Shown one piece after another: positions 10,051 to 50,474 of a stretch of DNA of 64,000 nt. The position numbers and the translations under genes are program-made. Under the pieces are notes generated by a model that was not told where the DNA came from, made no database searches, and saw only the letters and a list, made by a program, of their open reading frames with translations. Origin of the DNA: a candidate division FCPU426 bacterium (lineage in GTDB: Bacteria; Oederibacteriota; Muellerivitia; Muellerivitales; Muellerivitaceae); contig CAVYSE010000009.1 of NCBI GenBank assembly GCA_963771075.1, positions 64,001 through 128,000 on the forward strand, written 5' to 3'. Every line of letters starts with the position of its first letter. The stretch's first letter is position 1.

Positions 10051-11166
10051 TTAAAACTTGTAGGACAAATCAGCCTCAGACACGGTCACGATGGCGCCAC
10101 CATTATTATTATTGGAACCGCCAACCACATTCTCGTTCCCATAAAATATTCCATTTCCGGGCTGAACATTAGCAATGGAATTTTCCAAAGAGGTCGGACT
10201 TACAACGACATCCAAGGTGAAATTCTGCCAGTTGATCGAAGCGCCCGTATTGAAATTAAACGCGGTAGTATTTAGCGCATTATAAAGCTGCTTGGAGATG
10301 CCGGTGCGAAGAGTCAACCAGTCGGCAACTTTGGATTCAACGTTGCCGGTCCAGGCTAGGATGTAGTTATCCGCCGAGCCCTCGGTACCGACATAATCAA
10401 TCATCAAGCCGGTGGAAACCAAACCCTTGCCATCGTTGACCTTGCGGTTTGCGGCCAAGCCAACCACAACGTTTGAATCGCTTTGATTCGCAATGAAGGC
10501 GGGGTTCGACAGCAGGGCTAAATCCGCGAACATGCGCAAGTCATTATTGGCATCCAGATCCTTCTGGGCCAAAGCGCCGGCCGAAATGACAGAAGGCGCG
10601 TTCGATGCGGACGTGCCACCTGCGTATGCGCTAGCCATTTCATATCCGAGGTGGAAATTGATCTGGCTGAACGTGTCGGCGGTTACTCCCATGCCTAATT
10701 TAATGGCAATATCTCGGCCATAGTTGTTCCCGCTATCTCCCGCGGCGACCAGGCCGTTATAACCAGTATCGGAATAATCCACACCCACACCCAACGTAAG
10801 ACCGCTGAAATTATTGGCCCACAGGAGGTTCATCCTGTTGTTAGGAGCAGTGGCGGGTGTCGTACCAAGCGGGTTTTGAGAAGCTTGCTCAACTCCCGTA
10901 TAGTTCGCGTAAATCCCCATGGCTCCGATGGCGTCATCCTTCATGATCAAGCCACCCCAAACCGTGCCACCGGCAGGAATCAACCCACGAATATTGATGA
11001 TATTGCTGTAATCGTAGGCCTTGTTGGGATACAAGAAAACGGAATCCAAATCCTCATTCACGAAGAGGTTTGAACCCATCCCATCCAACCTGGCGCTCGC
11101 GAAAACCTTCATGGAGGCCCCCATCGCCATAAGACCAACCAAAAGCATCAAAAGACTTTTCTTCAT
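10051..11166 (-). CDS. Putative major outer-membrane beta-barrel protein (porin-like)
   Basis: Signal peptide MKKSLLMLLVGLMAMGASMKVFA, Gly/Asn/Ala-rich amphipathic beta strands, C-terminal ...ADLSYKF (BAM-type terminal Phe). AAGGAG SD, own promoter and terminator. Confidence 0.75.
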   Translation of the reverse strand: MKKSLLMLLVGLMAMGASMKVFASARLDGMGSNLFVNEDLDSVFLYPNKAYDYSNIINIRGLIPAGGTVWGGLIMKDDAIGAMGIYANYTGVEQASQNPLGTTPATAPNNRMNLLWANNFSGLTLGVGVDYSDTGYNGLVAAGDSGNNYGRDIAIKLGMGVTADTFSQINFHLGYEMASAYAGGTSASNAPSVISAGALAQKDLDANNDLRMFADLALLSNPAFIANQSDSNVVVGLAANRKVNDGKGLVSTGLMIDYVGTEGSADNYILAWTGNVESKVADWLTLRTGISKQLYNALNTTAFNFNTGASINWQNFTLDVVVSPTSLENSIANVQPGNGIFYGNENVVGGSNNNNGGAIVTVSEADLSYKF

Positions 11167-11191
11167 TCTCTCTCTCCTTAAAGCGCAAAGT

Positions 11192-11308
11192 GTTAGGGTT
11201 ACACTCCTCAGGGACGAGTGTGCTTCCCTACCTAAACAGCCCCGAAGGGCTGTTACAGCCACGTTACAAAGTTAGGGTAACACTCCTCAGGGACGAGTGT
11301 GTTTCCCT
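11192..11308. repeat. Tandem 38-bp direct repeat (36/38 identical, period 79 bp) in the porin 5' leader
   Basis: GTTAGGGTTACACTCCTCAGGGACGAGTGTGCTTCCCT (11192-11229) versus GTTAGGGTAACACTCCTCAGGGACGAGTGTGTTTCCCT (11271-11308). Confidence 0.95.
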
Positions 11309-11502
11309 TCCTTGTAAGCCCCAACCGGGGCCCCTTCCGACTAAGCCTTGTAAAAGTTAGTAAATAACCTAAACAAGTCTTAATTTTTGAGGATGGTCCG
11401 GGTTTTAGACCCTTCCACCCAAATTACGGACCTCCTCAGGGAGAAGCCCGATTTCATTACAAAAAGGCATTGGCCAAACAAATGCCTTTAATAAACGAAA
11501 AA

Positions 11503-11531
11503 ACTATAAGTCTGTCCCATAGGCCTGTCAA
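11503..11531 (-). promoter_or_regulatory. Near-consensus sigma70 promoter of the porin gene (TSS about 11496)
   Basis: TTGACA-17 nt-TATAGT on the minus strand. Confidence 0.8.
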
Positions 11532-11642: not shown

Positions 11643-13493
<1,851 letters not shown>

Positions 13494-15609: not shown

Positions 15610-16938
15610 TTACAACACCTTCGCGGCCAGCGCAGCCAGTTGGGAACGTTCGCTCTTGGACAGAGTGATATGCCCGAACATCTCATTACCCTTGAACCTT
15701 TCGGCCAGGTACACAATCCCATTGGAGGAGGCATCTAGGTAGGGATTGTCGATCTGGTATGGATCCCCGGTCATGACGACTTTCGTACCCACCCCTGCCC
15801 GGGAAACAATGGTTTTGATCTCGTGGGGGGTGAGGTTCTGGGCCTCATCCACGATCAAGAACTGCTTCGGGATCGAACGCCCACGGATATAGGTAAGAGC
15901 TTCAAGTTCTAGCTTGTGGGAGTCCAATAGATATTGGACCTTGTCATCCACTTCCTCGGCGTCGTTCTGCAAATGGCCTTTATCCAATATAAATTCCAGG
16001 TTGTCGAAAATCGGCTGCATCCAATTCATCAGTTTCTCGTCTTTGCTTCCAGGCAGGTATCCGATGTCCTTTCCGAGGGGAACAATAGGGCGAGAAACCA
16101 GAACCCTGCGGTACTTTTTTTCATCCAGACTCTTCAATAGGCCGGCGGCCAGGGCCAAAAGGGTCTTTCCCGTTCCCGCCGAACCCACCAAGGTTACCAT
16201 GCTGATGCGGTCGTTCAATAGCAGGTTCAGGGCGAAATATTGCTCCAAGTTCAAAGCCTTGATGCCCCAGGCCTCCGGGTCCTTGAACCAGAGGGACTGG
16301 GCTTCCTTCAGTCCGTCCCGGTAAATGCCCCGGGCGGTTTTGGACTCATGGATGTCGCTCTTTAAAAGCAAAAACTCGTTCTCGTAAAACTTGCTCTGTT
16401 CCATATAGGGAACCAAGGAGAGTTTCCCCGACTTATAAAACTCATCGACCTCCGAGTCCTTGACGGTTACGGTGGTCCAGCCCGCGTACAATTCGTCGAT
16501 GTTGACCTTGTTCGTCTCGTAATCTTCCGACTCCACGCCCAGGGCATCGGCCTTGACGCGCACGTTGATGTCCTTGGTGACGAAACGCACATTCTCGCCC
16601 TTTTCCTTCAGCGCCAGGGCAATGCCAATGATATTGTTGTCGATTTTCATGTGTGAAAGGGAAGCTGGCAGGTGATTGGCGGGGGTCGAGATGTCCACCC
16701 GCAAAAGGCCACCATTCTCCAAGGGTACTCCCGCCGGAAGGTTTCCCTTTTTGCGCAGGTCGTCCAGTTTACGGGCCACTTCCCGGGCGTTTCGGCCCCG
16801 CTCATCCTGGTATTTCTTGAAGGTATCCAGTTCCTCGATAACCCCCAGGGGGATCACCACAATGTTGTCCTCGAAAGACTCAATGGCGTGAGGGTTGTGG
16901 ATAAGAACGTTGGTGTCGAGTACGAAGGTTTTTTTCAT
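15610..16938 (-). CDS. PIN-PhoH (PhoH2/YlaK-like) RNase-ATPase
   Basis: N-terminal PIN domain FVLDTNVL...VIEELD...TKD. PhoH domain GSAGTGKT, IGYLPG, YIRGRS, DEAQN and GDPYQID. Confidence 0.93.
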   Translation of the reverse strand: MKKTFVLDTNVLIHNPHAIESFEDNIVVIPLGVIEELDTFKKYQDERGRNAREVARKLDDLRKKGNLPAGVPLENGGLLRVDISTPANHLPASLSHMKIDNNIIGIALALKEKGENVRFVTKDINVRVKADALGVESEDYETNKVNIDELYAGWTTVTVKDSEVDEFYKSGKLSLVPYMEQSKFYENEFLLLKSDIHESKTARGIYRDGLKEAQSLWFKDPEAWGIKALNLEQYFALNLLLNDRISMVTLVGSAGTGKTLLALAAGLLKSLDEKKYRRVLVSRPIVPLGKDIGYLPGSKDEKLMNWMQPIFDNLEFILDKGHLQNDAEEVDDKVQYLLDSHKLELEALTYIRGRSIPKQFLIVDEAQNLTPHEIKTIVSRAGVGTKVVMTGDPYQIDNPYLDASSNGIVYLAERFKGNEMFGHITLSKSERSQLAALAAKVL

Positions 16939-43393: not shown

Positions 43394-43470
43394 TGGTAGC
43401 GGGGGAGAGACTCGAACTCTCGACCTACGGATTATGAAACCGTTGCTCTAGCCAGCTGAGCTACCCCGCC
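43394..43470 (-). tRNA. tRNA with CAT anticodon, most likely elongator tRNA-Met
   Basis: GGCGGGG TA GCTC AGCTGGCTA GAGC A ACGGT TTCATAA TCCGT AGGTC GAGAG TTCGAGT CTCTC CCCCGCT A CCA cloverleaf. Confidence 0.93.
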
Positions 43471-50261: not shown

Positions 50262-50338
<77 letters not shown>

Positions 50339-50386: not shown

Positions 50387-50474
50387 TGGTGCCGAGACCC
50401 GGAATCGAACCGGGACGGGCTTTAGGCCCGAGGGATTTTAAGTCCCTTGCGTCTGCCAGTTCCGCCATCTCGGC
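50387..50474 (-). tRNA. tRNA-Leu (TAA)
   Basis: GCCGAGATGGCGGAACTGGCAGACGCAAGGGACTTAAAATCCCT + long variable arm + CCCGGTTCGATTCCGGGTCTCGGCACCA. Confidence 0.97.

Follow-up and report, generated by a model that had tools for sequence, protein, structure and literature searches.

A CCCUGA-loop hairpin, apparently undescribed, in the leaders of outer-membrane barrel genes of an uncultured bacterial lineage

The porin-like gene and its leader

The window, that is, the whole 64,000-nt stretch of DNA analyzed, carries at 10051..11166 on the minus strand a gene of 371 aa assigned by profile and fold matches to PopA-like outer-membrane beta-barrels. The protein has no Pfam match. Among solved structures, its 33-sequence profile hits only PopA, the major outer-membrane protein of Bdellovibrio, significantly (PDB 9gf0/9ga1, E 7e-12). 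The predicted structure has 16 long strands (pLDDT 77); its top four Foldseek matches are PopA, with E about 1e-11, and the next one, at 2e-5, is six orders of magnitude weaker. Judging by the model, the product is a PopA-like 16-strand barrel. PMC12228718 describes PopA as 16-strand oligomeric barrels of Bdellovibrio (Bd0427, PDB 9GA1/9GF0), the PopA superfamily being marked by radial oligomers with a lipid chamber, and prefers the term "porin-like", as channel activity is unproven. The protein encoded here shares with PopA the 16-strand barrel and the best sequence-profile and fold match, although identity is about 14% and the likeness is known from sequence and predicted fold. Of the 32 genomes examined from the order, 26 have PopA-like relatives. 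The porin-like gene directly follows glmS (11643-13493 in the window) in many members of the family and also in a distant class (L416), and there are tandem arrays of two or three PopA-like genes (L008, L023, L003, L017, L029, L036).

The ATG of the gene is at 11166 and is preceded by a leader of ~330 nt; all leader features are on the minus strand. Transcription probably starts near 11496, downstream of a sigma-70-type promoter, TTGACA-17-TATAGT (11503..11531), which matches the consensus at 11 of 12 positions. The leader would begin with a 5'-terminal hairpin (11452..11496), a predicted stabilizer that folding also yields in the other genus-g1 leaders reaching the transcription start. The word UCCCUGAGGAG then occurs three times, at 11442-11432, 11293-11283, and 11214-11204. 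Copy 1 (11427..11450) has an 8-bp stem and the loop UCCCUGAG and is one of two mutually exclusive folds, as its 3' half pairs with the strand at 11388..11400 in the alternative one. Copy 2 (11271..11308), preceded by a GC spacer hairpin (11318..11331), has an interrupted stem and the 9-nt loop GUCCCUGAG at 11294-11286, and its CCCUGA ends 120 nt upstream of the ATG. Copy 3 (11192..11229) is the ribosome-proximal and family-wide one; it follows a GC spacer hairpin with a UUCG loop (11236..11253), carries the same loop at 11215-11207, and its CCCUGA ends 41 nt upstream of the ATG. The Shine-Dalgarno sequence AAGGAG (11174..11179) is outside the hairpin and is kept in homologues.

An earlier sequence-only reading had described the promoter, three copies of the motif, two GC hairpins, and recurring linker words, and all of these were recovered on the minus strand where it had placed them. 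Its claim that three hairpins share one apical motif stands for the loop NYCCCUGAN, but the trailing GAG belongs to the stem and changes in homologues. The copy 1 hairpin is likewise present, with an 8-nt loop, but remains mostly unformed when the whole leader is folded (probability 0.18). The predicted fold of the 333-nt leader beats all 100 shuffles (z-score -4.6). The motif pattern has three matches in the window against 0.49 expected by chance, and the 11-mer occurs four times in the 4.39-Mb genome, three of them in this leader, with a Markov expectation of 1.9. A REP-like or mobile repeat was rejected given this copy number and the sense orientation.

Copies 2 and 3 are parts of a 52-nt repeat with 87% identity, 79 nt apart. 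The two linker words do each recur, as had been pointed out, but are not conserved: both occur twice in this leader, yet in none of eight other leaders of the same type, and hence are left-overs of duplication. The tandem unit and the linker words are the result of recent duplications. A hairpin with varying loop sequence precedes the element in homologues as well, and the loop sequence of the GC hairpin is not kept.

Conservation of the hairpin and its RNA nature

We gathered 69 upstream regions of homologues, 50 of which remained after removal of duplicates. Of these 50, 24 have a sigma-70-type promoter at a distance of 224-339 nt from the ATG; the 26 regions without it belong to downstream or lone paralogues or to cut contigs. 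Of the promoter-bearing PopA-like leaders, 22 of 24 display CCCUGA in the loop of a hairpin, 12-135 nt ahead of the start, a figure that is circular, as this set defined the motif; the same uniform test applied to the genome background passes 42 of 3,548 genes. The two misses have variant loops. Six of the 21 scorable regions without the canonical promoter pass as well (four cut contigs, one variant promoter, and one downstream paralogue). In 20 of the 22 leaders, 32-44 nt separate the nearest loop from the ATG. One exact copy is the commonest state (14/24 leaders), and three copies are found here and in one congener. A sister family has a CCCUUGG variant of the loop; outside the order, five of six distant PopA-like upstream regions lack CCCUGA and the sixth has it on a weak stem.

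An RNA model, R1, was run over 32 genomes with 150 candidates scored per genome. It returned three true leader copies among the 21 new matches inspected, the remaining 18 being in or against open frames or unconvincing; in this genome both matches with E<0.1 are in this leader. In most genera the body of the leader is of a different, highly conserved type (L051, L052, L053, L020, and 12 more; alignment A4): ~60-100 nt upstream of the tag there is a long hairpin with an interrupted stem and a U/G-rich loop of 7 nt, and further conserved blocks precede this hairpin. Downstream PopA-like paralogues sit after a terminator-like hairpin, mostly without the CCCUGA tag.

The covariation set consisted of 40 hairpins hand-picked from 60 candidate windows; seven copy-1-type hairpins were left out, as were 13 windows in which the match fell outside an apical loop or out of register. 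Double changes are seen at all six stem pairs, with 38 such cells against 9.2 in shuffles. In the 40 hairpins 90.8% of stem cells are paired, a figure inflated by the hand-picking, and the paired fraction drops to 28-58% in slid registers. In 57 hairpins from four gene families, with the register set by Watson-Crick pairs only, the mRNA strand has 38 G-U juxtapositions and 4 A-C ones. The reverse word is absent from the BBP2, Porin O/P, and small-barrel leaders and occurs 4 times, versus 51 for the forward word, in the PopA-like ones. Since the stems covary and favor G-U on the mRNA strand, the element is an RNA. Only six loop letters are fixed, while their neighbors vary. Thus, a covariation check in homologous leaders, suggested from the sequence alone, has yielded a conserved leader and promoter and covarying stems.

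In four metatranscriptome runs of one study there are contigs that match the stretch from 10078 to 11466 with 100% identity. One of these RNA contigs, 10986-11427, includes the start codon, all of copies 3 and 2, and the greater part of copy 1. A contig from a second study, at 11132-11384, has nine changes, none of them listed in the loops. In the four runs, identical contigs within a 4.6-kb stretch are seen only over the porin-like gene and its leader; their absence over glmS and the neighbors proves nothing. For runs X5 and X6 small shares were covered. The contigs are unstranded and hence speak for presence in RNA libraries, neither for the start site nor for the level. Another identical RNA contig lies at 16213-16441. 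Taken together, the RNA contigs over the leader and the covariation bear out the proposal of a structure-plus-loop site: it is a transcribed, conserved, and covarying cis-acting RNA before a major porin-like gene.

In nine genus-g1 leaders, the copy 1 hairpin is paired in 72 of 72 cells, not above shuffles, with one-sided changes in five of eight pairs and no double change; its loop variants are CCU, UUU, CUU, and CAU. The alternative fold is paired in 107 of 108 cells, again not above shuffles, and one pair has a double change. In ensemble energy the two folds are 0.4-11.6 kcal/mol apart, and forcing copy 1 raises the predicted accessibility of the Shine-Dalgarno sequence in all nine leaders, by 0.01-0.24. 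In 16 leaders of other genera, the middle hairpin has a 7-nt loop complementary to CCCUGAG at six of seven positions; this pairing holds in 85.7% of cells, with one double change coming from one sequence. According to these predictions, the alternative fold and the second loop could gate access to the tag.

The leader matches no known riboswitch class, in agreement with the sequence-only reading, as the Rfam search gave no matching family: in the window it found, at the gathering score, only three tRNAs, in the leader region six weak unrelated matches at E<=10, and in ten homologous loci four weak unrelated ones. The tRNA genes are on the minus strand at 43397-43470, 50265-50338, and 50390-50474. 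The same reading had offered a multi-site protein-binding leader or a tandem riboswitch. Protein binding is still the best reading, but the riboswitch is unsupported: a single copy is the commonest state, and the GC-hairpin loop and the linkers are not conserved. Nothing in the leader resembles the c-di-GMP or c-di-AMP aptamers suggested as a lead. Elsewhere, this genome and G004 each have two copies of a conserved non-coding element (G000:C11 about 355215 and 358969; L392), which we take to resemble the c-di-AMP (ydaO) riboswitch. A hammerhead-like arrangement in copy 2 (CUGAnGA beside GAAA) was rejected on visual inspection, as there is no stem I, copy 3 has no GAAA, and Rfam gave no match. 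The SLH motif, an orphan riboswitch candidate, is also a conserved structured leader before cell-surface genes, but, according to PMC6429828, it is found in Synergistaceae and Firmicutes before S-layer-homology genes, and on the grounds of lineage and gene type it differs from the tag. Searches of openly licensed papers and preprints brought up no description of the motif, while supplementary lists of candidate RNAs could contain it.

The same loop before other barrel genes

The loop is not special to the porin gene but recurs before three other beta-barrel families. In this genome, two further genes have a CCCUGA loop upstream: one for Porin O/P on C28, at a distance of 98 nt, and one for a BBP2 porin on C11, at 46 nt. 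This brings the barrel-like genes with the tag to three, whereas 120 permuted words average 0.075. By crude calls (39 barrel-like genes of 3,555), the tag is absent from 36 of the 39.

Among BBP2 genes, 13 of the 22 with a sigma-54 promoter, and 14 of all 28, pass the uniform test. The stems of the BBP2 tags are unrelated to those of the PopA-like leaders, while the loop is exact. It is found in exact form in seven of 14 genera and in 13 of 14 allowing one mismatch, counts that have to be read with the kinship of the compared genomes in mind. Permuted words yield a mean of 0.12 and a maximum of 2 in the same leaders, and a prior-free count of loop pentamers puts CCCUG first (14/22). The loop follows the -12 box at a distance of 33-54 nt and is within the inferred transcript. 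The sigma-54-type promoter itself, TGGCA-N6-TTGC, is conserved in 22 of 29 upstream regions of BBP2 genes (L134-L162; e.g. L135, G000:C11 about 376340-376360), and many yceI/Porin O/P operons share this word. In G002 the BBP2 match is in two frames (L160, G002:C14:104152-105160), with the promoter and the tag kept.

Among Porin O/P leaders, seven of 27 pass, six of these with a copy-1-like hairpin and from three genera. Small 8-strand-type barrels pass in three of 29 cases, all three being the discovery cases, and yceI, encoding an exported periplasmic protein in the Porin O/P operon, in only two of 25. In 2.0 of 4.0 Mb of the relative G004, six of 1,737 genes pass, the two strongest being barrels already identified, and 19 of the 20 barrel-like genes lack the tag. 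Across tagged genes, the loop is mostly 32-46 nt before the start. The pattern scan gave about 155 matches, and we inspected the loci of 70, including 40 that had been picked by eye for being intergenic; most were chance matches. As the gene caller covers only 78% of the genome, with many genes for ribosomal proteins missed, a link to high expression in general is possible.

Two further sets of genes are worth recording. In G021 (L113, G021:C107:27800-31700), two NHL-repeat lipoprotein genes upstream of the porin carry copies of the end of the porin leader; the lipoproteins have near-identical signal peptides, and one of the leaders has the loop CCAUGA. A CCCUGA hairpin is also found upstream of acireductone dioxygenase genes in two genomes (L240, L243). 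Their product is cytoplasmic, and these copies are due either to chance or to a wider regulon.

Overall, the tag looks like the mark of a post-transcriptional outer-membrane-protein regulon: on sequence grounds, it precedes at least three, and probably four, unrelated barrel families.

Candidate partners of the loop

A fixed six-letter loop on free stems, in most cases at much the same distance from the start, before unrelated genes with different promoters suggests a shared trans-acting partner, as does the constancy of the loop where no cis partner is seen; we regard such a partner as very probable. Our preferred explanation, to which we give slightly less than an even chance, is that the CCCUGA hairpins form an operator for one RNA-binding protein braking the translation of barrel mRNAs together. 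Such a protein would dock on the CCCUGA loops of several barrel mRNAs and, bound next to the upstream landing site of the ribosome, would hinder initiation with the Shine-Dalgarno sequence left uncovered, as at thrS; extra hairpin copies would raise avidity, and the purpose may be to limit the flux of abundant barrels into the envelope. The repeated copies, the short fixed word, and the failure to find Hfq or a complementary RNA favor a protein, whereas an RNA partner is favored by the YUNR word, by loop variants of the wobble type, and by a known case of porin repression without Hfq. The brake has counter-evidence in the predictions where forced copy 1 opens the Shine-Dalgarno sequence, and the shared regulon in the many barrel-like genes without the tag.

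A protein-read loop would have parallels. CsrA/RsmA proteins recognize GGA-loop sites with variable stems, several per leader, across a regulon. The element resembles these sites in its short loop word, variable stems, several copies per leader, and regulon, but here GGA is in the 3' stem arm and lost in many copies, and CsrA (PF02599) was not detected in this genome, which is 96.7% complete. Neither was Hfq. KhpA, KhpB, and one RRM protein are present, and are candidates only, as nothing ties them to the loop. The thrS operator of E. coli, as described in PMC9976931 and PMC3936740, also has two look-alike stem-loops read by their loops, upstream of an unoccluded ribosome-binding site, with the near one at -14 to -48 (-26 to -63 here). 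By contrast, thrS is a case of synthetase autoregulation via anticodon mimicry, while here several genes for exported barrels are tagged and there is no anticodon mimic.

Somewhat doubtful, but the best of the alternatives, is that an envelope-stress small RNA with the seed UCAGGG kisses the loop and would thereby repress the mRNAs of major barrels. Outer-membrane protein mRNAs are typical targets of such RNAs; RybB and MicA are sigma-E-dependent small RNAs that control them. As the tag would, sigma-E small RNAs give several unrelated outer-membrane protein mRNAs one post-transcriptional input near the translation start, but there the C-stretch is on the small RNA, whereas here the C-rich word is on the mRNA's own covarying hairpin, in one to three copies upstream of a free Shine-Dalgarno sequence. 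The lack of Hfq is not an obstacle, as the FoxI and FoxJ small RNAs of Fusobacterium control outer-membrane protein mRNAs without Hfq or ProQ, according to PMC11005410. CUGA has the form of a YUNR turn, by which contact between sense and antisense RNA is accelerated (PMC6562991), several loop variants are C-to-U or A-to-G changes tolerated by wobble pairing, the complementarity to a second loop in the 16 leaders described above fits RNA-RNA pairing, and the genome has 18 sigma-70-family matches. On the other hand, the variants CCCGGA, CCCUCA, CCCUAA, and CCAUGA break the pairing, and six fixed letters in a closed loop make a short seed.

The search for the complementary RNA itself also weighs against the kissing site. 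There are 553 non-genic UCAGGG sites in this genome, nine with a terminator, and 123 after stricter filtering. Comparison of this genome with 2.0 of 4.0 Mb of G004 (BLAST, synteny) revealed no conserved non-coding UCAGGG element, and visual inspection of 32 genomes showed no UCAGGG RNA recurring downstream of a presumed ECF promoter; with half of one relative covered, a short or 3'-derived RNA could escape these comparisons. rRNA has only scattered partial matches to the loop complement. A small RNA beside an AhbD-like gene was rejected as the partner, as it lacks the complementary word. At G000:C28:283455-283485, between two small secreted-protein genes and ~1.2 kb from a sigma-factor gene, there is a terminator-like hairpin with a UCCCUGA loop, possibly a decoy or a chance match.

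It is unlikely that the tag acts in the opposite direction, recruiting a factor that promotes mRNA stability, initiation, or delivery to the export machinery. The free Shine-Dalgarno sequence, opened further by forced copy 1 in all nine predictions, would suit this, as would the restriction of the identical RNA contigs to the gene and its leader, although contigs cannot rank expression. A delivery tag, however, should mark most barrels, and this one is missing from nearly all of them both here and in G004.

Still less credence can be given to pairing in cis of the loop with the Shine-Dalgarno region or the second loop, that is, a ligand- or temperature-dependent pseudoknot, which we consider improbable. 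On paper, UUCCCUGAG forms eight of nine pairs with UUUAAGGAG, the middle-loop pairing in other genera is frequent, and copy 1 has two conserved folds. Still, pairing with the gene's own Shine-Dalgarno sequence is at chance level when compared to 814 random Shine-Dalgarno windows (mean percentile 0.60 for 25 PopA-like leaders and 0.39 for 14 BBP2 leaders), the double change in the middle loop rests on a single sequence, BBP2 leaders have no consistent cis partner, and Rfam gave no match.

That the leader is simply a folded stabilizer like that of ompA, with a specially stable, partnerless loop, is very improbable. Long folded leaders are common on porin mRNAs, and the loop can close to a CCU triloop with 82.5% of inner cells paired, but these inner pairs do not covary, and a generic stable loop would neither be confined to barrels nor keep a fixed distance to the start codon.

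Hardly credible at all is a DNA role, with the stems being CIRCE-type operators bound by HrcA. The commonest stem, GCACTC-N9-GAGTGC, is the CIRCE core, comprising the inner six bases of each arm and the 9-base spacer of the consensus, TTAGCACTC-N9-GAGTGCTAA; hrcA is present in the genome, several of the 47 pattern matches in the genome collection are true CIRCE sites of unrelated bacteria, and six of 42 PopA-like hairpins reach 14-15 of 18 consensus positions. Yet the three leader copies fall below 14/18, none of the 27 copies before BBP2, Porin O/P, and small-barrel genes exceeds 8/18, the tag lacks the outer bases and is not linked to chaperone genes, its arms change while the spacer stays, which is the reverse of an operator, and the G-U bias is specific to the RNA strand. 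The only site with at least 14/18 in this genome is a perfect CIRCE before groES-groEL (L112, G000:C18:133048-133074).

Returning to the proposed protein-read operator, a bolder version is conceivable, though we hold it only tentatively: an undescribed sequence-specific RNA-binding protein would read CCCUGA as an "address" on barrel mRNAs, being a protein-only counterpart of the sigma-E brake or an export zip code, and some genera would gate the address by a decoy loop or an alternative fold.

The cis-acting RNA tag is real, apparently undescribed, and appears to define an outer-membrane-protein regulon, which could thus be delineated in an uncultured lineage by sequence analysis only. Where the control of outer-membrane protein mRNAs is known, small RNAs pair with the message, whereas here control would run through a portable hairpin tag, which moreover stands behind different promoters: sigma-70, sigma-54, and inside an operon. 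The hairpin provides a 30-40-nt bait with built-in controls for fishing out the partner. Few such systems are known, and, if this picture is true, they would be joined by a new sequence-specific bacterial RNA-binding regulator or by a small-RNA site presented in a loop.
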